Positions 7,304-38,508 are shown, counted from the whole stretch's first letter. The stretch: 63,969 nt of DNA, filler included, from Dirinaria sp. TL-2023a (GCA_051941275.1; 3 parts of 3 records of this genome joined end to end with filler, not necessarily neighbours in it), one strand, 5' to 3'. The notes: generated from the letters alone by a model not told the origin. Numbers and translations: made by a program.

Positions 7304-8390
7304 TCATCTCACTATCACTCTGGCCACTGGTATCTCTTCGTTTTCTACCTCGACGTCTACCTCTTCCTCCTTGTTGAAGTTCTCCAGGAGGTGAGCGACT
7401 TCTGTCGCCATCGCATTCTCCGACTCTTCACTTTTATGCTCCACCCCATCGAATAATCCCTCCTCGAAGACTCCTTCCGCAATTTCATAGTCGCCTATGT
7501 ATTTCGCTATTGGCTTCAGGGTACTCTTGCGGAAATAAGATCCCGCACTGGCCAACATCTTTGAGCCGGGGCATTTACTTTTAATATCTCCGGTATCTCC
7601 ATATGCCATCATGCGCAGGACGCTCGTGACATAATGCCAGTATAGATATCGAATTCCTGGTCTGCCGTTACCCAGAAATTACCCAGAAATTGTAGCTCTT
7701 CTCCATCGTACGATCCGTAAGTTCGCTCAGGAGTTTCTGGGATTGGCTGGCTCATCAAGGCTGTGTCCAGTATCCGGAGTTTTAGTCGTTGAGGCGATCC
7801 TGGCGGCGTGTCGATAGGTACGATCACCAACTCTCCTCTATCTAATCTCTCTTCGAAAGACTTTGACATCAAAATACCATTTTTGAGATGCCAGATATGA
7901 GACTTCCCCGCTGCGAAGTCGCCTTTATCTCCCACTTGCCACGCTACATTTTCGTAGCCCATAAAAAAAGGTATTATGTGAGCGGCAATTCTCTCTCCTC
8001 CCACAGTCGACCAACGCTCTAGTATTGAACACCATTTCTCTTTAACTTTCTTAGGCCTTTCGCCTGGAGTTTGCACGATGGCCTTCCTTCGGGTGGAGCC
8101 TTGATAGAATTCGAGATCTCTCTTCCAGCTGTCATGCGGCTTTTGGTCTCCGACATGCAGTTTTGTAGCGTGGGATATTCTAAAGCTGTTTGTGATTTCT
8201 GCCGTACAGGCTTCCAGCCCCGCATTCTCTTTGCTTCCCCGTTTTGTTACCAGTCCTTCTCCTGACGGTCGAATCTGTCATGGACATCGCGGCCTTCTTG
8301 CTTCCTGCGCTTTCGATACAGTTCGTGAAGTTGCGACTACAGCTCCTCGTGACCTCATTCAATCGTCTTCGAATAATTTCAGTAACCCAT
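7304..8390 (-). pseudogene. Decayed fungal HNH-endonuclease (HNH_2-like) gene
   Basis: Motifs WCSIL...IAAHIIPF...NGILMSKSFEERLDRGELVIVP...LKLRILD...DGEELQF, then in a shifted frame GRPGIRYLYWHYVTSVLR leading into ORF 7304-7612. The shift comes from an 11-bp tandem duplication ACCCAGAAATT (7670-7680/7681-7691). Upstream there are in-frame stops at 8337-8339 and 8247-8249 and another frameshift near 8220. Confidence 0.75.
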
Positions 8391-21687: not shown

Positions 21688-23236
21688 GGTGCGGTGAGAG
21701 GAATAGGAGTTAGATTGAGAGATAAGATACTGATCTTTTTGTTCTTTTTGTCGACAGTCATATATATACATACAGAAGTATCTTTTTTTGATTCAATGAA
21801 GTAAAAGGAAGGAAATGAGATACGGTTTTAATAATTTACTCTTTCACATTTCCTCTCCCTACTTAGGTACATTCTTTACACTTTCGTACTCTCGACTGAC
21901 TGCGTATGTGTCTATAGATCTTACGTAAATATAAACGTGATTTAATAATTGATGGCAGCTAGGCTTTTTCTTTATCCCACAGAATAGGTGTATAATCTCT
22001 CCTATCAGTATTCCTTCCACATGCTCTGGAAAAAGATGAAAAGAAAAAGAAAAGAAGGGGCACTTGGGAAAAAATTTTTTTTTTTTTTTTTTTTTGAAAT
22101 AGGGGTTCTCGCTCTTTTTCCTGGTGCTGCAGATGGCATCTAGAGTCGAGTAGAGAGGTAAAGCCTTTATTGCGTAAGGAAGAAAAAAAAAGAAAAAATA
22201 GAAAAGACGCCCACCCTACTCTGCTTGCTACACTATTCTTCTTCTGATTTAGATCTAATGAACACAGGATTCGATGCCCGAGGTCTAAATCAAGAAAAAG
22301 ATACACGTTCACCACCAACCAACGCATCCAATTTTCCCCCTAAGAATTTTCAGCCTGAGGATATTATCAATCTAAAACCCTCAATTCAAACGCAGGCCAA
22401 GGCAGAAACCTCTGAGGTCGTAGCCTAGCCTGTACAGTATCTGTCTCTTGTTCTCGTGATTTCTTCACCAGCGGGGATTCAGCGAGGTATGATTCGTCAA
22501 TGGGCTCAGAGGGAGACTTCAACCTCATAATAGATCCGATCATATAGTGTTGGCGGATATAGATGTCGATGTAGATGGAGATGGAGAAGTGGTGGGATGT
22601 ATGAGAAAGCGAGAAGAAGACACGCATGGGTAAACAACGTAGACCTGGTTTATTCGAGCACCTACCTACATTAGACATATATTCTGCTGGAATAGATCTT
22701 GTGAGGAGGGCGGTGGGCGCATAGTAGGTGTCACAAAAAAAGGCTAGTATGCCTTTTAGAGGATTTGCCGGTTTCTGTGCCAAAAATATCTACAGTACGG
22801 CTGTGATGGCGCGATTTGGAGGGTATTCAAAAGCAACTGTTATCACTCATACTTGTGGAACCCTCTTTTCTTCCGCGTGCAACGCCTGGTGTCCAAAGAA
22901 CGATCTTCGAATCGTTGAATTTAATAAACTTGCAAAAATAGTCGTTACGTAAGCCTGTATATTTTGATTAACATAGTCTAGCGCGGCTAAGGCCTTTCTT
23001 CAAGCGAGACTTGGCGTGATTGGCTAATATGAGCGCCAAGCAAGGCGCACACTCCGGGGGTTCGGCACGGCACGGCAGATCCGAAAAGACAATTCTGGAT
23101 ACTGTATTATCGATGTCGTATGCGAGTACCTCCGTGGTGTCTGCCACATACAATTGTATGGAATTACTGCCATGAAAATTCTTATATTCACATATATGTC
23201 GTTGTGGGGGGTGGGGCGCAGAATACATTACTACTC

Positions 23237-23237
<1 letters not shown>

Positions 23238-23272
<35 letters not shown>
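23238..23272 (+). repeat. (TGC)11 microsatellite
   Basis: Eleven TGC units read directly; they produce the spurious poly-Leu in ORF 23120-23479. Confidence 0.9.
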
Positions 23273-27712: not shown

Positions 27713-30336
27713 ACGTCCGGACTGATAGAAGATCACGCGGAAGTTGCATCATTACTGTCGTCTTCAAGGCGGGACCGGTTCGCATGCTGCAGTGTGGATC
27801 CCACACGCACAGTACTAAGGTGATGATGATAGGCTTCTGGCTTTGCAACTTCGAGAAGTCCAACAGCAGCACGATATGAGCACCCCTCGAATCACGTTGA
27901 TCGATTTACGCTTTACGCACACCTATTGCATCAACGAGCTTCTCCGCCAGGATCGAGTGCCGATGTGTCTGTGCCCGTCTACTCGTCACGACGTTCATTG
28001 ATCAATGAACGTCACTCTGTGGGTAAACGGTTTGGTTGATGATGGGATGTGGAATTGCCAACGAGGGATTTGTACCTGAAGTACCGTGCAGGTGATGACA
28101 ATATTTTGAGTTACGATGAGAAGGTACAATAATCTACATGGACTCGTCCCTACGATATGATGGTGTGAGCAGGTACATGGTCGAGGTACCTCAAGGCGGT
28201 CTATTTCCATGCCAAGAGTGTGAATTGTGAAGCCACTAAAGCTAATTAAGAGACGTTAATCCACATCGGGAAGATCTAGATCGGGGAAATGCGAGGACTA
28301 GTTCGTGAACGAGAGTAAGGTACTTACATAAGGTACTTAAGGTACCTTAAGGGAAGGGAATGGACTCGTACCTCCGTAGTAGCGAGTAGCGACCTAACAC
28401 TTCGGCAACTTTGCCTATATAGGTTTAGAGATTAGTTGCTTGTTTGCCGAGTGCGAATGACAATGGAAGGCACATCCCATCTGCATTATTAACATGCTAA
28501 CCCTACAAAATTTCGGACCCATCTGCTGTTCCATCATACATACAGGTAGACATCAACCTTCGTCATGGAACAGTCGACGTCCTGTGAGGTGGTTCTGTTC
28601 TGACCAGTCTTTGAGGTACGGGAGTGCCAATGCGACGGTATCACTGCAGGAGAAGCAACATGAACGTCAGCTCAACCGCGGGTTACCGGGTTCGTGGGAG
28701 GACATCGATGCCAAGCTACCGTGCGGGGGTTCGATGTTCTCCTATTACAAAGAAATCACGCCACCCGGAGCTGGTGACGGTATCCGGACCCCTCAGTAAA
28801 GTAAGGTATGGCTTTTATGGCAAATTGCCCCTCTGCCCACAGTTGGTCTACAAGCGTCCTGGGCAGTGGGTAAGGTAGTGGGCAATGAACACTTACTCCT
28901 TCAAGCAGTTCGAGAATTCAGAACGAGACGCCAAGAACGGCTTGGCAGCTGAATGAAGAGCTCCAAGCCCATATAGACAAAAGATGATCAGCAACAAAGG
29001 TGACTGATGGCTAATCAAGAACTAGCAAAATCACCGAGTACCGAAAAATCCATCGTGCTTGGGCGGTAAAGCTACTGAAGCATGGCCTAAAGTGGTCTCG
29101 GTCCGCGATTTAATGCAAAGCTAAAGGGTTCAGGCTGCATGCAGATCTGTAATGTAAGTATGGTGAGGCATGAGCTCATTAGGAACGGAGGAGTCGATCA
29201 TTGGAGCACGAAAAGCAAGTGTTAGGTATTTGCCCCATTCCCTTCCTCTCAACTTTCTCCGGAAAGTGTCTCGTTGTCGGTGTTGCAGCACCCAGTACTG
29301 TACTGATCCTTCTACGTATTTCACACTCTCGTCGAAATTTCTGCTAAAAGGTTTAGAGCGCTCTATGTATGGGCCCCTTCGCATGATGTCTTGCAGCAGC
29401 AAGTGTTTTCATCAATGTTGCCTGTACCTCAGCACCCATTGCTTTTTTAACTCCTGCTCTTAGGATTACTAGATGTAAGTAAGATAACTTCTTCTGAGTG
29501 TTCCCGCTGCTTCTCCCAGATTGGGATCTTTAGCTCCTTCTCATTTCGGATCTCCTCACTTTTGAGCAGCTATCGTTTTCTTCCGGCGTAACTAGCCTCA
29601 TTGTGTCCTGTCATCGGGCTCCGTCCTCTGCTTGCGTAGTGTCCAAGCCTCGGGCGCAGTGGGTTGTTTGTGCATGGCCGGTACGATTATAGCAGGATGA
29701 AAGTTTGCGCTAGACCGAGCTTACGCAGTATTTTCGCCGTCTCGACCCCTTTTCAAGTCAGAGTCCGTCTCTAACGCAGCAGATTAGTACGTAAGTATCT
29801 TATAAAACCTTATACGTTCCACAAGTTTCAGATTTTGACTGGAGCTCAACATAGGCGGACTCAGATCTACGCGATCGACAAGTTATCTCAAACAATGTAG
29901 ATTTGAACGTAGTCATAGATAATTTCGTGAATTTCTCATCCAAATTCGAGTAGTTTCAACCTTTGAAATGCCTTGTTGCATGTTCAGCACAATCAAACAC
30001 AGCAATTGGGTTTTTGAATAAACGAAAGAAACTATTTTACTCAGTTTGTATTATTCGTGAGAGTTGGGAAATCTTGTTGAGTGCAAAGACTATTGTACCG
30101 CCTAGGGGATTGATGGGTTTTGGTGGGGAATATAAGGACGTAGACTTCTGGGTTAGTACTGCAGAAGTAAGGAGCGTCTCTGGTACAGCTTTTTGGGCTC
30201 ACCAGTACCTTAGTAGTACATGAATATAGATAAGCAATCCTGTAGTGCCACGCAAGCCGGCATACCGAGAAAGGAGAGACTTGTCTGCAATCTTGATCAC
30301 CAGGGCATTAATATGAAGGGAGTGTGCAGTTTCTCT

Positions 30337-33300
30337 TTAGAAGTCACCGTTCTGGACTTCGTATCCCTGTTCATCTGGACGGCCCGGCGCGACAGTTGGC
30401 CGCCGCTGATGATGATCCTGATGGGCCGGGAATGCTGTAGTATAGAACTCGCTCCATCCGCCCATGCGTACGCGCACCAGGCCGTATTTCTCTGGGTCTT
30501 TGCTTGCCGCCTGCAAGGTTTGCAGGTCCGCGCAAGTCAAAGTGATGAGGTTACCTCCAACCCAGCCTGCGGCGTAGTCTTTGATGAACTGTTGCAGGTC
30601 TTCCAGCGGGAAGTCCTCAGGGAGATTCAAGTCGACTGGCGCCGCATCTGCGATGCCATACTCCACGGCATCCTGGTGATAACTCTTCATTACGCCGTAT
30701 ATGTTGCGGAAAGCTGGCTTTGGCGGCAGGTCTTGTGGTGAAGGGGCTGGAGATGTATCGGAAGCAACAGGCATGCCTTTGCGACGGCCGTCGGCCGAAG
30801 CCCCACACGCCTCTCCAACGCCCGTATAACCCTCGAACGTACCAGCGCCAATGGTCACCACGAACTCGAAATCTTGTCCGTATTTCTGCCTGATCCTTTC
30901 AAGCTTGGGGGCAAGCGCTGGATGGGGTTCGCGGATGACACTCTTACCAATCTCCACGATGCTGTCCATGAAATCAGCACCGATCTTCTGGAGCACGGCA
31001 TCAGCGGCACCACTAGCCCACTTGGGTAATGCCAATGCCGCCGTGCGAAGCTCTTTGTAGCGATCCGCGTGCTGCTCAGCTTCTGTTGCTGCCAACATAA
31101 GATCCTGGTAAGGCTCGATCATGCCAAATCCCCAATCATTGATCAAGCATAGAAGCAACTCGTCCAAGGTCGTGCATGCTGTCTTATCGTCATAAACTAG
31201 CTTCCAAATGGCGTAAAGCGAGTCTATAGTGTTCGAGGCGCCAGGGAACAGCGGCGCGATCATGTGGAAGCGCGCACCTCCATCAGTAAGATCACGCCCT
31301 TTCTCGATGCAGCCGTCTATCACTGTCGAGAGCAGCGGACTCGGACAGACGTCTGCCAGATTTCCATAGTGGTCCAGAATGTAACCGTAGCATTGAATCG
31401 TGAGCCATCTGAGTTGCTCTAGGAAGATTTTTTGTAACTCCTCGAACGATTTGATTGATCGCGCTAATGGCGAGCGGAACGAGGCCTTGAGACCTCTGAG
31501 ATGCTCCGACCCGGCAGCAGCGTACGTAGCTCCTTCATTGATGGTCTGCTCCAGGGCAAGGAGAGGCATGACATTGTTAAAAGCAAATTCCGTAGCCCCT
31601 GCCATCATGGGCTCGAAACAGCCATCGGCCGCATAGTCGCGAGACCGTCTAATTCCAACGTGATCGCTGGTGACTCCCGAGTCAAGAAGGCCTTTGCATA
31701 GCTTGTCATCGTTGAACAAACATGGCTGTGCACCACCCGAGAGCAGAGCCTTTGCTGCTTCCTCGATAATGCCAACGGGCGTTTGCTTGTTAAGGCGAAG
31801 CGATACGCTGGGTGCGCTGACCGGAATGCGCCTTGCTGATTTAAGGAAGAGCATGGTGACGGGGTTGCACCCATCCTGGGGCTCACCATCCATCGCCTTG
31901 TACCCTCCGATCGTGATCTGTTGGCCCCACTGATTGATGCCGCCACCTTGTGAAAAGTTTCCCCAGCCGCCGTTGATTGAGCCCGTGCCGCAGGTAATGT
32001 AATCGTGTATGAAAGAACGATCAATGAAGGCGTTCTCGCCAATCTTGACAAACAGACAATCAATGATTTCCTGTGCCCGATCTGTCGGAATTGGGTATTT
32101 TTCCAGGAATGGCCAAAGAATTTGATCGAGACGGCCAATCGACGTCAACTCTCCTACCAGGTGCAAGCAGCAGTGAAACGAATAGAGCAGCTGGACGGCA
32201 TCCTGAAAGCTCTGCGGAGCCTGATCAGCGAGGCGTCTCAGTCGATCAGATACATCAGCCATACTGTCAGCGTCATCTGCCTGGTTTTGCGTGCGAGCTT
32301 GAGCAGCGGAGTTGTCGGCAGCTGTTGCCCAATTACGCAAATAGCCTTGAACCCCTTTAAGAGACGTGATTGCGGATTTGTAGAAGGTAGCATGTGATGG
32401 GTCCTCGTGAAGCCGCTTCTCCAAGTCTGCAAGCATGTTCCCCAAGCCGTTGCGGACGAGATGGTCAAGATCAGGAATTATGTGGCCCATAGACGAAAAC
32501 TCATTGAGCTGCTTTGCCAACCAGAAGTTGAACACTTCTTCGTTACTCAGGTAAGGCATGACTTCTTTCCCTCGGCCGTATGTAAAGTCTGGAACCACGC
32601 CGACGATGAGCTCCTTGGGATGGATTCTCAAGAGTCCACATTTTTGGGCAACCTTTGAGTCGGGTGCGGACAGCAAGTTATTGAGGGTCTCAAAGTTAGC
32701 CATGGCTTTGCGTGTCGGTATAGGGATTGCTTCCATTTCCTTCTTCTTATCGTCGCTGCCAGCAAGATGGGGAAGGCGAGGAAAGTGGTCATTGTGAACC
32801 CATCCGTCACGCCAGTGGTTGAACGTCCTGTGTATCAAACTCAAGAGGCGTGGGGTTGGTCCATCGCCTTCTTTGTAACGTCCTTCGCCCATTGTGTGCA
32901 TGTAGTCCTGAAAATTGTAGAAGAGGTATCCGTTCGGGCTGCTCACTTTCCAATGCGGATGCTCGTACAAGTCGTCGCTGGCCTTCGCCGGCGAGACTCC
33001 GAGCTCCCTGGCTGCCGGCACATACCAGTACGATCCACCCACACCGGACATCATTTGCATCAACTTGTCTGCCGGATCGTCCTTTCTCTTGCCAAGAAGA
33101 TTCTGGAGAATGTCCTCAAAGCGTTGTTGTTCATTGCAAAGTGCGACAAACATGATTCCCTGTTCACGTCCTGAATGATTATGGACTCTGCCAAACGGCA
33201 ATGCTTGGCGAAGGATTTTGCGCTGATCACCATTGCTGTCACGAACGTTGGCACGATGTACGTGCCCACGTGTAGAGTGTTGAGAGAGGATAGACCCATC

Positions 33301-33897
33301 GGTTCTGCGGCCGACGATCTGGTCCTGGCTGTCGACGGTGTTCGACTTTATGGCTCCCCAGTCGAAAAGAAATCGCTGGGTGAAGGCAAAGGAAGAACCT
33401 TTGAAGTCTCCATTGATGAGGATGTCCTCTTGAAGGCTGACCGGATCGTTCGGATTGGTAATGCCGTCGTGGTATCGCCCTCCTATAATCCTCGAGTCCA
33501 GACGCTTGCCCATGACAACACAATCAATGTTTTTGGCCAGACCTTCCAAGCGCATCTTCGGTTCTTTGAGGAGCTCTTCAGCCGTGTTCTGGTCATGCGT
33601 CTTCAGGTAGAGGAGTACATCTCCACTCGTGTTCGTATACTGGTCGGTCCCATTCAGTACCTTCTCAGATATGGGAATGGTACGGTCATTCCACTTCCCC
33701 CATAGTTGCGGACTGAAACCAGCGAACAGTCCACATCGGGGCTGCTGCGAGTCAGCTGTGGCAGCAAGATCCCGAACAATGGTGATGAGACTATTGTACG
33801 TGCCCTCGTGATGATCTTTGAGGTCAATAGTCAAGAGTTGCCCGAAGAGAGAACGCGTCAACAAGCCGCGCTGGGCACCTTCTAGGATTTCGGTCAT
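30337..33897 (-). CDS. DyP-type heme peroxidase / glycyl radical enzyme fusion protein, intronless, 1186 aa
   Basis: Residues ~1-295 are DyP: GDVLLYLK, RYHDGITNP (Asp144), GSSFAFTQRF..DW, QDQIVGR, GHVHRAN (His212), KILRQALPFG (Arg230), GIMFVAL, GSYWYVP. Residues ~420-1170 are GRE: PKELIVG, GHIIPD, PQSFQDAVQ, SIGRLDQILWPF, QITIGG, PSVSLR, PCLFNDD, DGCFEP (Cys760/Glu762), SPLLSTVIDGCIEKGRD..DGGARF, GASNTIDSL.AI.KLVYD, GASADGR..G.P, LVRVRMGGWSEFY (Gly1147). Confidence 0.93.
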   Translation of the reverse strand: MTEILEGAQRGLLTRSLFGQLLTIDLKDHHEGTYNSLITIVRDLAATADSQQPRCGLFAGFSPQLWGKWNDRTIPISEKVLNGTDQYTNTSGDVLLYLKTHDQNTAEELLKEPKMRLEGLAKNIDCVVMGKRLDSRIIGGRYHDGITNPNDPVSLQEDILINGDFKGSSFAFTQRFLFDWGAIKSNTVDSQDQIVGRRTDGSILSQHSTRGHVHRANVRDSNGDQRKILRQALPFGRVHNHSGREQGIMFVALCNEQQRFEDILQNLLGKRKDDPADKLMQMMSGVGGSYWYVPAARELGVSPAKASDDLYEHPHWKVSSPNGYLFYNFQDYMHTMGEGRYKEGDGPTPRLLSLIHRTFNHWRDGWVHNDHFPRLPHLAGSDDKKKEMEAIPIPTRKAMANFETLNNLLSAPDSKVAQKCGLLRIHPKELIVGVVPDFTYGRGKEVMPYLSNEEVFNFWLAKQLNEFSSMGHIIPDLDHLVRNGLGNMLADLEKRLHEDPSHATFYKSAITSLKGVQGYLRNWATAADNSAAQARTQNQADDADSMADVSDRLRRLADQAPQSFQDAVQLLYSFHCCLHLVGELTSIGRLDQILWPFLEKYPIPTDRAQEIIDCLFVKIGENAFIDRSFIHDYITCGTGSINGGWGNFSQGGGINQWGQQITIGGYKAMDGEPQDGCNPVTMLFLKSARRIPVSAPSVSLRLNKQTPVGIIEEAAKALLSGGAQPCLFNDDKLCKGLLDSGVTSDHVGIRRSRDYAADGCFEPMMAGATEFAFNNVMPLLALEQTINEGATYAAAGSEHLRGLKASFRSPLARSIKSFEELQKIFLEQLRWLTIQCYGYILDHYGNLADVCPSPLLSTVIDGCIEKGRDLTDGGARFHMIAPLFPGASNTIDSLYAIWKLVYDDKTACTTLDELLLCLINDWGFGMIEPYQDLMLAATEAEQHADRYKELRTAALALPKWASGAADAVLQKIGADFMDSIVEIGKSVIREPHPALAPKLERIRQKYGQDFEFVVTIGAGTFEGYTGVGEACGASADGRRKGMPVASDTSPAPSPQDLPPKPAFRNIYGVMKSYHQDAVEYGIADAAPVDLNLPEDFPLEDLQQFIKDYAAGWVGGNLITLTCADLQTLQAASKDPEKYGLVRVRMGGWSEFYTTAFPAHQDHHQRRPTVAPGRPDEQGYEVQNGDF

Positions 33898-34560
33898 CTT
33901 CGCTTGATTGATGTAAAAAGTTTGATCTGATGAGTGAAGACAGCCTTGATACGTTCATGCAAAGACTGTTCTCTCCCTCCATCGCGAGCAAAGGCAGGGT
34001 AGTATAAAAAGTAGCAGGTGTATGACACAACAGCTAGCCGGCGATAACGAGTCGCATATCAAAACCTTCCCCGCAACTGCACAGCTCGTTTCTCGGATGC
34101 ATTCGGGGTGAAGATATTCAGACTCGAGTGCGCATAATGAGAGAACCACTCAACGGCAGTATGGAAGAGCGGGGAATGACCCATCGCAACATCAATGAGC
34201 TTTCTCGTCCGAATGCAGCGTGACGCAGTCAGTTGAAGCGCACATGCAGGCTTGAAGATTGAGCACACCTCGAATGGGGAAAGGCAGCCGATCATTATGG
34301 GCGGCAAGAGCCTGATATGCATAGAATGGTTTTGGATAAACGAGATGAGAGAAAAAAGGCCAAAGACAGGGCCAGATTCAATGACCGTGCCATTTAAACT
34401 TTTTGAACAACTACAGGCTGTGAAACTACACCTATTGATCAAGTTGTCATGATGCTAACAACGCTCAGATTATACTGCGGGTCCAGTGACTCGGCTCAAC
34501 TTCTTCCCCAGATGGTGAACAACAGGACGTCGCCTGCGGATCTAACTTTGGGCAGCCGAC

Positions 34561-36560
34561 CTACAAGCTACGTCGACTCACACGTATCGGTAAGCCATTT
34601 TTAGGCCTCAGAGTAAAGCTTGGAAGGAATTCCATTTTGAAGCCCGGCTCAAGGCTAAGATCATATCGTCGGATAACCGTAGCAATCGCGATCGTCATTT
34701 CGAGCATTGCGAGCCCTTGCCCTAGAATCAAGAGGTGTTAGATTGCAGCTTCGCGATGTCTGATATGGTAACAAACCGATGCAATTTCTTGGGCCCCATG
34801 AGAAAGGGAAATAAGATCCCTTGGTCTTCGTATGGCCAGAGCCGCCAGACCGCCACCGTTCCGGATCAAAGTCATCGGCATCTTCCCATAGAGTGGGATC
34901 TCGATGCACTATAATCTCGTGAGATTCCTCAATTCATGACATTGAAATGAACGTGCAGGAATGGGATAGGCTCACCGGCAGGATTCCATAAAGCTAAGGT
35001 AGTATCTGCAGGGAGCGTCGTGCCGCACACTGTTGTATTGACCGCGCAGGTTCGGAAGCTTCCGAATCCTGTCGAGTGCACTCTCAGAGTCTCTTTGACG
35101 ACCATGTTCAAATACGGAAGCTTGGTCTGATCGATAGAAGCAATGGAATCATTGTCAGGTATACTTGCATCGATCTCTGCACGCAATCGAGCCAGGATTT
35201 CTGGGTTGCGGAGCTGCATCCCGTAGAGCTTGAGTCAGCTCTCACGATTCCATCTCCCTCAGCTAGTATGAGGCGGTCTTACCACTTCCCAAAGTAGGAA
35301 TGACATGGTGTGTGCAGTCGGGTCTGCTCCGGCCACCAGGAATGCCACTATTGATCCACACATTTGGCTCAGCAAACGATCACCAGTGAGGTCCAGCCTT
35401 CCTTTTCAATCGAACGTACCGTAATTGTCCACAAGCTCTTTCGAACTAAAGGAATAGCTTCCGTTGGACTCCTTCTGCCTGTCACAAGTCATAAGCGTCT
35501 TGGTACTCAGTGATTGCGGCGCCCTTACTTAGCCAGGATCTCAAATATTTTTTTGGGAATTTTGTTGGGTTTCTCCTGGGATGCATCGGCCCCATGGCGG
35601 ACATTCTCTACCGCTTTCTCTGCCATAAGTCTCAACTCTGCGACAGCACGATGCATCTCTCTCGTCTTTCTCAGAATGGGGAACTTTGCTCTCCAAGGAA
35701 AAAGCCCGCATTTCATGAGTTCTGGCAACACTATGTCGAAGAGCTGCATTATGCGACAGTCCGAGCCATGAGCAAGTGCGTGAAAGTCGACACCATATGC
35801 AATATCCCCAATGAAGTCAAGCGTAAGAAGGACGTGAAGTGAGGAGAAGTCAACAACGGTCTTATCTCTTGCAGCAATGTCAAGATATTCCACACAGTGC
35901 TGTGGATCATGGACAAACATCAGCAGCGATGCGATTGTGTTTAAACCCTTGCTGCTACTTACGTTTAGATGTTTTGCAAAGCAAGCGTACTGACCCTCGA
36001 TGATATTAGGTTGAAAAGCTGGTGCAAGACGCTTTCTTTGTATCCGCCATTTATCGTGATTTGTCTGTACGAACAAGGCGTCGCCACTCAGAGGCCGGAA
36101 CCCATCGTATTGAGTTGCGGCCTTCTGCCAATTCGAGTTTGAGATGGTGGTAATCATATCTGGATCGCCAATATAGATGACTCGTGAGAAAGGGCCGTTC
36201 CACTTTCATAGTTTAAGCCAATGCTGATCGTAGTTTGTGTGGAGATACTGACGGTCTGGAAGACGTGTCCGTATTCACGATTCCATTGCAACCACTACAA
36301 GCTGTTAGGCTGATTTTGACACAGGGAATATCTTGACTGACCTTTTCATGCACATTATCAGCCATCGTCTGGTCGAGGTTGCCGGTCCAGAAATTTTTCA
36401 CCGGCGGACCAGGGAATTCATAGCGAGCCCGAATATAGACGTACATGAAGCGGACAACCATAATCATTAACAATGCAATAATTGTCATGGCAAGGAATGA
36501 GACCTGGACGACGTTGAGACCACCCAGGGTCAGGGGCAAAGGAGAAGCTAGTTTCGTCAT
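34561..36560 (-). CDS. Cytochrome P450, 9 exons, atypical I-helix (AGADPT)
   Basis: N-terminal TM anchor with FPGPP, KWRIQRKRLAPAF, I-helix YVAFLVAGADPTAHTMSF (exon ~35283-35348), KETLR (ExxR), HRDP..W.DADDFDPERW, heme motif FPFSWGPRNCIG|QGLA, and stop TAG at 34561. Eight GT-AG introns were traced in frame. Confidence 0.93.
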
Positions 36561-38508
36561 CTTTGGTTTGTCGTACGCGTAGTGAGAGGAGAGAGTCCTT
36601 GAATTCCTCTGTATTTCACCCGCTTCGTCGTAGTTATGAGGATGAAAGGCCCATAAGGATCTAAATGAGTTGTGGCAGAAGCCCCGCTTTCACTGCGAGC
36701 TACATCTGGATGCAAAGCAGACAACGCTCCGGAGGTTGACGCCATGAGCTCTGGCTAGCGCCGTGTCCGAATCGTCTGAGTGACTACAGGTGCGCTTTGA
36801 CTAGGCAGGTCTTGTCTCCTCCGTCCAGGCCGATATCGGATACAGAATATCAGCCAACTTGTGTGCAGAGGATGAGCCATGCCTGCATAGGACGGCGTCG
36901 GAGAAAACTCTGATGGAGGCTCATAGCAGTCCTGTCGTGCAGATCTATCGTCAACTGAGAATCACAGGCGTACGTGCAAAAGTGTAAAAAAAGGGGGGGA
37001 ATGATCCCTGTATCTGCTTCAGGTAACAATGGTACATACTCGGCAGGCACAATACAAATGGGAGCAGGTCGTGGTCTCTGCTAAAGCACAGCTGCACTGT
37101 CCCCACATATGTGCTTGCGACTTGCGACATTTATGTGGGATGCAGCGTGGCTTGGCTTGTCTGGTTAATAATTCTAGATGATGTCCCGCGTACTCCGCAA
37201 GCTACAGTTACAGTACTGTAACGTAGACGTGCTAGCGGCAATGATCGACCTTCATACAGTAGGTATTCTTCAGACCTACCTCCAGTAAGCTAATGCAAGC
37301 TTAGCGCCTTGGTCGGCTCTGATGCAAGCCAGCATGTCTGTTCTTGAACGCTGGGCTCCTTTGGATGCGGGGTGCAGGCCACGAAGGTTGTCTTCACACC
37401 ATCACGATTCTGTAAGCGAGATACCGTGAAGAGCAGGCGCGTTGGAGGAGCGGTCGCTCTGCAAAACTTGTCACTCGGCACTTGAGTAGTGCTCAGGGAA
37501 TAAAAGAGTGTAGTGATGAGGAGATCCTTGATACATCGGCTATACCTGTGATGTGTGGGTACCGCAGTAAACAAGTAGGTACAGTACGTGCCAGGAGGGC
37601 CAAGCCACTAGACCTACTCGTACATGTAACCACTCTCCCACTGAAATAAGGTAAGGGGAAATAGATCATAAGCCAAATCGTCGTCCATACTCGGTGGTAG
37701 GCTCGAGACTCTAGACCTCGATGCTTCTGTAAATATCTTGGCACGGAAGATAGTTTTCGGCGTCCCCGGTTTGTGCCCCAGGCTGTTCCTGCAGCATTCC
37801 CTAGCTTCAATACCGGACAGACGTGACTGGCTTCCTCGCTTTCGTTTCCCCGAAACATTAGTGCAGCGGGTGGAAAATCCTGTTAGCGTCGAACTAAAAC
37901 GAATGGGCTTAGCTTGCAGCTCCGCCTCAACATCATCTCACATTTGATCGAATTGCGACATTTTGAATTACATAACAGAGGTGTTTTACTGACGACGAGA
38001 AAATTACAGAATTCATAAATCTGCATCAATTATACCTCTTCTGCAAATATTTTCGAAACGTGATCCTGAGAGTACGAGAATTGGAGCCATGTCGACTGAC
38101 CCTCGAAAGCGCGAGCGACCGAGATTTGCTATACAGATCTCTTTGTATATCTTGCTTAAGCTCTGCACAGCCAGGCTTTTCTTTGCTATCATTAATTTCA
38201 CTCATACGTGCTGATAGTCTGACAGATACTGATCAGGTAACACCATTAAAATTCCCTTTTTTCTCATCGATGGTGGACCTTCCCAAGGACGGAAAACTGT
38301 TAATTACACTGTGAGGACCTTGAACAAGGTTGGAAACAAAACACGTCAGAGGCTTGATTACCCATCCTCCCACATATTTCCATGATCGTAACATACATGA
38401 CCGTCAAGAAATACAACTCAAAGCTCTACTACTCGTCCCTGTTCGGCTGGCATGTGCATACAGAATGCAGATTTTCCACCTGGTATGGCACCGTACCGGC
38501 TTGATGCT

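Follow-up and report, generated by a model that had tools for sequence, protein, structure and literature searches.

We analyzed a stretch of DNA of 63,969 nucleotides, filler included, from Dirinaria sp. TL-2023a (GCA_051941275.1), which as a whole is called the window in the following. It contains a gene for a fusion protein consisting of a DyP-type heme peroxidase and a glycyl radical enzyme (GRE) related to pyruvate formate lyase (PFL). The original prediction, an earlier note made on this DNA from the sequence alone, had claimed an uninterrupted open reading frame (ORF) of 1186 codons, and this was confirmed: a single ORF at 30337..33897 on the minus strand starts with ATG, comprises 1186 codons plus the stop codon, is intronless and contains 0 internal stops. 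In the 1186-aa protein the DyP-type peroxidase takes up residues ~1-300 and is followed by a full-length PFL-like GRE at residues ~305-1186. The catalytic residues that had been named, Asp144, His212 and Arg230 in the first part and Cys760 and Gly1147 in the second, are each found at these positions. The features of the gene are given below in coordinates of the window.

30337..33897, minus strand: ORF of the DyP-GRE fusion protein, 1186 codons, with the stop codon at 30337-30339; homologues of 1186 aa align over 100%
32998..33897, minus strand: DyP-type heme peroxidase domain (class P/B type), residues 1-300, from Pfam, NCBIfam and the alignment with solved DyPs
33466..33468, minus strand: Asp144, distal acid in RYHDG (GxxDG motif), aligned to the DG of solved DyPs
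33262..33264, minus strand: His212, presumed proximal heme ligand, aligned to the His of 'sHvgR' in 5de0
33208..33210, minus strand: Arg230, distal arginine, aligned to the R of 'kivRhsLPyG' in 5de0
30340..32985, minus strand: full-length GRE fold, residues ~305-1186, from Pfam PFL-like and from Foldseek against CutC, glycerol dehydratase (GDH) and 1,2-propanediol dehydratase (PD)
31903..31989, minus strand: family-specific Gly-rich insertion NFxQGGGINQW, residues 637-665, a gap in the GDH and CutC alignments
31609..31623, minus strand: Cys loop GCFEP with Cys760 and Glu762, eliminase-type Cys-x-Glu, aligned to GCVEP of 1r8w
30454..30474, minus strand: glycyl radical loop RVRMGGW, residues 1142-1148, with Gly1147, aligned to RVAGY of 1r8w
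30397..30432, minus strand: conserved C-terminal tail FPxHQxQHQRRP, residues 1156-1167, in 48/48 bacterial translations listed
30054..34040, minus strand: RNA contig of 4012 nt from run X1, covering the whole ORF and, without a joint, a further ~283 nt on its downstream side and 143 nt on its upstream side

The assignment of the N-terminal domain to the DyP family could be verified with two profile models, both of which score above their cut-offs. Pfam Dyp_perox_C (PF20628) matches residues 142-296 with an E value of 7.1e-25 and 88.1 bits (cut-off 20), and NCBIfam TIGR01413 (Dyp_perox_fam) matches residues 46-298 with 113.4 bits (cut-off 100.5). The solved DyPs 5de0 and 7yzt align to the same part of the protein with E values of about 1e-18, and in this alignment Asp144 coincides with the Asp of the GxxDG motif, His212 with the proximal His and Arg230 with the distal Arg of both structures.

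For the remainder of the protein the model-based check was only partly positive. Pfam PFL-like (PF02901) matches residues 463-981 far above its cut-off (E value 2.7e-87, 294.4 bits against 24.3), while Pfam Gly_radical (PF01228) over residues 1098-1152 reaches 17.2 bits and stays below its cut-off of 22.2. No GRE equivalog or subfamily model of NCBIfam comes near its cut-off: the PFL2-3 model TIGR01774 gives 185.7 (cut-off 678.2), the CutC model 136.3 (1050), the HypD model 130 (1100) and the formate C-acetyltransferase equivalog NF007437 138.9 (1109). Because it falls far below every one of these cut-offs, the GRE part is regarded as a separate, unnamed GRE clade. Judged by its motif, the catalytic loop is of the eliminase type (Cys-x-Glu), as in the GRE 1,2-eliminases GDH, CutC, PD, HypD and the sulfonate lyases; it holds a single Cys in D-G-C-F-E-P, with no adjacent Cys-Cys pair as in classical PFL. 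Gly1147 in RMGGW aligns with the glycine of RVAGY in the glycerol dehydratase 1r8w.

An AlphaFold2 (AF2) model was calculated from an alignment of 75 sequences. Its mean predicted local distance difference test value (pLDDT) is 87.8 and its predicted template modelling score (pTM) 0.91, and on account of these values the two domains are predicted to form one rigid body. With Foldseek ~915 columns of the model align to full-length CutC, glycerol dehydratase and propanediol dehydratase, with E values down to 4e-36 and TM-scores of 0.76-0.78, normalised on the targets of ~800 residues. As this alignment runs over the full length, residues ~305-1186 represent an entire GRE with the ten-stranded barrel and the helical region at its N-terminus, and no fragment. 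Stretches of low confidence in the model are the Gly-rich loop at residues 621-660 (pLDDT 51-66), residues 796-803, and the Gly loop together with the tail (~65).

The same 75 sequences, which share 33-89% identity, were used to count conserved residues. His212, Glu245, Cys760, Glu762, Arg1142, Arg1144, Gly1146, Gly1147 and Trp1148 are invariant (75/75), and Arg230 is kept in 74/75. At position 144 there are 44 sequences with Asp, 30 with Glu and 1 with His, i.e. 74/75 with an acid. The original prediction had reckoned with the case that homologues mostly lack the Cys/Gly pair or the heme ligands; the opposite was found, and judged by these residues the family as a whole has kept both active sites intact. 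Also invariant are the aromatic residues W180, Y292, Y327, Y332, W362, W366, W657, W922 and W1148.

A further observation concerns two highly conserved segments without a counterpart in solved GREs, namely the Gly-rich insertion, in which G646, G651, Q656, W657 and Q660 are invariant, and the C-terminal tail with invariant Q1160, R1165 and R1166. Both may be considered candidates for a domain contact or a radical relay.

The fusion recurs widely. Among the homologues listed, 114 out of 120 contain PF20628 and PF02901 together. They come from lichen fungi, Sordariomycetes (Xylariales, Fusarium, Chaetomium and relatives), one dothideomycete and Betaproteobacteria (55-58% identity), and the more distant ones from Chloroflexia. 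The closest of them, with 80-89% identity and all 1186 aa long, are named from metagenome-assembled genomes (MAGs) of lichen fungi. The remaining 6 out of 120 (664-930 aa) contain PF02901 alone and are probably fragments; most lie on short contigs and two on contigs of ~21 kb and ~200 kb. A scan with a pattern derived from the alignment, in one genome per prokaryotic species, yielded 132 confirmed loci, of which 80 were retained. Bacterial loci were found in Ralstonia, Pseudomonas cichorii, Collimonas, Janthinobacterium, Massilia, Kordia and Saprospiraceae, and likewise in myxobacteria, Actinophytocola, Nostocaceae and Acinetobacter. The recurrence in 114 out of 120 listed homologues and in 132 bacterial loci is an argument that the architecture is beyond chance. 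Seven diverse bacterial members were scanned for domains, and all of them (7/7) consist of Dyp_perox_C and PFL-like only, with no radical-SAM (S-adenosylmethionine) domain.

Two papers have dealt with such fusions before. A 'DyP-PFL' fusion was described as the only DyP of Chaetomium cochliodes (Zamocky 2016, PMC5041501). According to this work DyP-PFL occurs in distant prokaryotes and eukaryotes, and a horizontal gene transfer (HGT) from proteobacteria was inferred. In quantitative PCR the Chaetomium fusion was reported to respond to H2O2 with a 3-fold and to peracetic acid with an 18.5-fold induction, and the physiological role of DyP-PFL was termed elusive (PMC5041501). A survey of DyPs from 2022 names the fusions subclass P2 and calls them unexplored (PMC9719856). 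It suggests that the DyP domain shields PFL and the PFL activase from H2O2, and the fungal classes it gives for subclass P2 are Leotiomycetes and Sordariomycetes only (PMC9719856). The idea of an undescribed system could consequently not be upheld, as DyP-PFL (PMC5041501) and subclass P2 (PMC9719856) are already in print. The accompanying statement that no enzyme of this architecture has been characterised holds as far as the searchable full-text literature shows: in full texts, with subscription-only sources out of reach (e.g. the 2014 encyclopedia chapter cited in PMC5041501), no enzymology of the fusion was found, and within the same reach no proposal of an activase-independent activation of a DyP-GRE fusion. 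The architecture is thus known; new are the lichen-fungal member, the stand-alone gene without a conserved neighbour, and the absence of an activase in most bacterial carriers.

A tree was calculated with IQ-TREE (LG+G4) from 40 of the 75 rows of the alignment (19 fungal, 15 proteobacterial and 6 outgroup rows, the 35 more distant rows being omitted) and rooted on the clade of Chloroflexi and Bacteroidota. The 19 fungal rows form one clade, with a support of 100 in the Shimodaira-Hasegawa-like approximate likelihood ratio test (SH-aLRT), and this clade is the sister of a Paraburkholderia sequence (98) within the proteobacterial group. The fusion from the window is placed inside the fungal fusion clade (SH-aLRT 100). 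In sequence terms this placement agrees with the published transfer from bacterium to fungus, and the gene is best explained as belonging to the DyP-PFL family (DyP subclass P2), acquired by Ascomycota from Burkholderiales-like bacteria. A transfer from fungus to bacterium had been considered, since FastTree (LG+CAT, 75 rows) nested the proteobacteria in a fungal grade; it was dropped after IQ-TREE gave monophyletic fungi. The conflict between both programs on the nesting of the proteobacteria is a caution against reading the direction of HGT from quick trees. We further report that the sequences of lichen fungi nest among those of Sordariomycetes, their sister being the sequence P0021 of Neoarthrinium moseri (SH-aLRT 99). 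This placement departs from the phylogeny of the fungal classes and suggests either a transfer from fungus to fungus or heavy loss.

To the gene itself belongs the RNA evidence, which stems from four library runs of one lichen sample in one study, the RNA being that of a relative ~95% identical at the DNA level. It consists of assembled contigs, which are informative on neither the expression level nor the strand. The contig of 4012 nt listed above differs from the window by 186 letters and 6 gaps. It spans both domains without a joint and contradicts two separate products, a case that the original prediction had allowed for. In the same libraries contigs of the upstream neighbour (34385-34800) skip 55 nt at 34720-34776, and the borders of the skip are compatible with a GT..AG intron on the minus strand. 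The skip looks like a spliced intron, and because of it the libraries can be taken to contain processed RNA. The fusion gene is transcribed as one unit, consistent with an intronless gene. At about 34102-34278 the window has no cover by an RNA contig.

In the textbook view GREs are enzymes of anaerobes and depend on a dedicated radical-SAM activase. Many carriers of the fusion, among them Acinetobacter, myxobacteria, Collimonas, Anabaena and ascomycetes, are aerobes. We searched 15 bacterial carrier genomes with two general models of GRE activases, TIGR02493 and TIGR02494. TIGR02494 was above its cut-off in 0/15 of these genomes and TIGR02493 in 2/15, namely Andreprevotia lacus and Chitinilyticum litopenaei. 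In both of them the PflA gene directly adjoins a classical full-length PflB, and the fusion lies apart from pflBA, in one case at a distance of about 40 kb and in the second case on a different contig. For the remaining 13 out of 15 carrier genomes the search for PFL-like genes gave no match besides the fusion. The resulting tally is 2/2 genomes with a classical PFL that possess an activase, and 0/13 fusion-only genomes that possess one of the PFL type. Among the 14 reference genomes used as controls each activase model was above its cut-off in 3, and PFL-like matches occurred in 3 (E. coli, B. thetaiotaomicron and L. lactis). Those of the best matches below the threshold that were checked are NrdG-type activases of class III ribonucleotide reductase (RNR), present in 3 genomes, and QueE, PqqE, MoaA and AmmeMemoRadiSam proteins.

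A similar result was obtained for the vicinity of the gene. None of the 65 ORFs flanking the fusion (two per side, 16 diverse bacterial loci) codes for a radical-SAM protein, and the flanking genes vary from locus to locus. When all ORFs at a distance of up to 5 kb from the fusion were clustered (580 ORFs, 76 loci), no conserved neighbour emerged, the top family being found in just 6 loci. In the 64-kb window no radical-SAM gene was detected either, the best tblastn match with five radical-SAM queries having an E value of 0.095. The family is represented by a stand-alone gene without conserved partners, mostly in genomes without a radical-SAM activase of the PFL type. The original prediction had stressed the paradox of a peroxidase joined to a GRE; this is better framed by the general absence of a PFL-type activase in the bacterial carriers (0/13 fusion-only genomes).

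Two observations were made in the course of these searches. In 6 out of 76 loci (L017, L024, L025, L028, L032 and L054), which span Betaproteobacteria, Bacteroidota and an alphaproteobacterial MAG, the fusion has a phosphoesterase/phospholipase-C family gene (PF04185) at a distance of up to 5 kb. This proximity is a weak hint at a lipid head-group substrate, and with 6 out of 76 loci it was set aside as a substrate clue for being too weak. Moreover, in JGI annotation AmmeMemoRadiSam radical-SAM proteins (P0123, P0125, P0132 and many others) routinely bear the label 'pyruvate formate lyase activating enzyme'. This was seen with an Archangium member of AmmeMemoRadiSam as query, for which all 120 matches listed are bacterial or unnamed. 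Because it is given so routinely to AmmeMemoRadiSam proteins, the label alone is weak evidence for a PFL activase.

The other ORFs of the window are of the fungal type and include a SEN1 helicase, a P4-ATPase flippase, V-ATPase subunit E, a Fungal_trans factor, a P450 and MFS transporters. Pieces of a P450-like ORF were seen at 35525-36689 on the minus strand, farther upstream of the fusion gene. At 7609-8277 on the minus strand, amid ordinary fungal genes, lies an ORF that encodes an HNH_2 endonuclease domain (E value 3.8e-06). A short ORF at 23028-23270 on the plus strand ends with consecutive Cys codons (a simple repeat of the TGC/TGT type) and is probably a noncoding microsatellite.

The gene product is best explained as a cytosolic, self-contained two-domain enzyme. 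For its mode of action we tentatively propose that the protein radical needed by the GRE barrel is generated with peroxide by the heme domain, which would thereby replace the activase, a possibility we take seriously while regarding it as somewhat less than probable. The DyP heme would react with H2O2 or an organic peroxide to Compound I, and the oxidising equivalent would exit the heme as a Tyr or Trp radical. This radical could be relayed within the same polypeptide to the GRE barrel, either to Gly1147 or directly to Cys760, or to both. The thiyl radical of Cys760, with Glu762 as base, might then start a GRE-type 1,2-elimination on a small substrate. The induction of the Chaetomium gene by peroxide and peracid fits a peroxide-using enzyme and equally a scavenger. 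With a little more reserve we extend the proposal to the family, whose members could be self-activating, air-compatible glycyl/thiyl radical enzymes in which a peroxide-fuelled heme peroxidase installs or re-installs the radical in cis.

While considering this proposal one must keep in mind several points that speak against it. In C. cochliodes a putative PFL activase, 81% identical to CHGG_03160, is reported elsewhere in the genome (PMC5041501). NrdG-type activases exist in 3 of the 15 bacterial carriers, and other radical-SAM enzymes, which might moonlight, are found in all carriers. The activase search comprised two models and a check of best matches below the threshold, beside which several weaker matches exist (five for TIGR02493 and three for TIGR02494; L101-L105), and the absence of an activase covers the bacterial carriers and the 64-kb fungal window only. 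Some carriers are MAGs of anaerobe type (Scalindua, Thermoanaerobaculia). The Gly loop is modelled with a pLDDT of only about 65, and a glycyl radical would be labile to O2 whatever its origin.

Alternatively, the protein could be a conventional GRE activated in trans by a radical-SAM enzyme at low O2, with the fused DyP just removing H2O2 from the surroundings of a system sensitive to O2 and peroxide, as proposed in the 2022 survey (PMC9719856). The putative Chaetomium activase (PMC5041501), the NrdG-type enzymes in 3/15 carriers and the induction by peroxide, which also suits a scavenger, are in line with it. We nevertheless consider this explanation unlikely: a PFL-type activase is above the cut-off in 0/13 fusion-only bacterial genomes, none adjoins the gene in the 16 loci or occurs in the window, and the annotation of the fungal activase is weak in view of the label given by JGI to AmmeMemoRadiSam proteins. 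From established GRE chemistry it can be added that a peroxidase is unable to guard a glycyl radical from O2 itself.

Rated lower still is a scheme of two coupled activities that act in sequence on one metabolite, with an unrecognised factor installing the radical and the fusion serving channelling or co-regulation; an aldehyde or enol product might be oxidised by the peroxidase, or a peroxidase product cleaved by the GRE. The invariance of both active sites and the predicted rigid arrangement of the domains (pTM 0.91) would suit it, as would the PF04185 gene in 6/76 loci with its hint at a lipid head group, but no pathway neighbour is conserved, a separate radical source would still be required in 13/15 genomes, and the substrate is purely conjectural. 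Least probable of all is that the GRE fold has taken on another role which does without a glycyl radical, so that the C-terminal 880 residues serve a DyP peroxidase as a scaffold, a sensor or a non-radical catalyst, for although the Gly_radical score (17.2 against 22.2 bits), the equivalog models all far from their cut-offs, the absent activase and the low model confidence in the Gly loop and the family-specific loop point in this direction, the presence of Cys760, Glu762 and Gly1146-Gly1147-Trp1148 in 75/75 sequences over many phyla is hard to explain without radical-type catalysis, and the match to active GREs runs from end to end.

The interest of the family rests on unexplained biochemistry, sharpened by the pattern of activase absence: an intact catalytic set of a GRE occurs mainly in aerobes, fused to a heme domain that uses an oxidant, and 13/15 carriers lack an activase. 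If the heme were indeed the radical source, this would be a third route of radical initiation on the RNR/GRE barrel, beside metallo-cofactor/Tyr and SAM/Gly. GRE chemistry would then extend to strict aerobes, lichens and other ascomycetes, and oxygen-tolerant GRE catalysis could become available to biotechnology, e.g. for dehydrations or C-N and C-S lyase reactions in air. If the heme is not the source, the family still marks either an unrecognised activating factor or a repurposed GRE fold.

Among known proteins the closest relatives in architecture are the 'dyprx' proteins of Chaetomium cochliodes and C. globosum, members of subclass P2 with the same N-terminal class B/P DyP and C-terminal PFL-like part. 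The homologues of the Chaetomium group are 58% identical over 99% of the length and fall into the same bacterial-derived clade. The copy in the window differs in its origin from a lichen-type fungus, whose class is not listed for P2 in the 2022 survey (PMC9719856). Both papers assume a separate activase and report no enzymology (PMC5041501, PMC9719856).

With the stand-alone class B/P DyPs (Vibrio cholerae DyP 5de0, 7yzt and the encapsulin-cargo DyPs) the fusion has the domain and the three aligned active-site residues in common. Unlike them, its DyP joins a GRE of 880 residues without a flexible linker, the last DyP strand reads YWY in place of YFF in 5de0, and the distal Asp is replaced by Glu in about 40% of the family members. 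On the GRE side the B12-independent glycerol dehydratase of Clostridium butyricum (1r8w) is the top sequence match among solved structures (E value 1.9e-40) and also one of the best fold matches, with an identity of only about 20%. The Cys-x-Glu loop as well as the Gly loop are common to both, and in the alignment His472 of the fusion is matched to the GH in 'GVGHVSVD' of GDH. Compared to the GRE 1,2-eliminases as a group (GDH, CutC, 1,2-propanediol dehydratase and HypD) the fusion adds the Gly-rich insertion, the HQxQHQRRP tail and the DyP. In anaerobes these eliminases are accompanied by an adjacent radical-SAM activase, whereas none adjoins the fusion in the bacterial loci examined. Classical PflB, which goes with PflA, resembles the fusion in its PFL-like fold and its Gly loop and differs by a Cys-Cys pair, which the fusion lacks.

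For the proposed transfer of a radical from the heme to the barrel, class Ia RNR and prostaglandin H synthase offer functional analogues only, as neither has a sequence relation to the fusion. In class Ia RNR and in prostaglandin H synthase a Tyr radical arises from an oxidant at a metal site, primed in the latter enzyme by the peroxidase, and is passed on so that catalysis can begin. The barrel is common to RNR of class I and class III, which differ in their radical source. By analogy we infer that the DyP-GRE fusions may stand to the activase-dependent GREs, with respect to the radical source, as class I RNR stands to class III.

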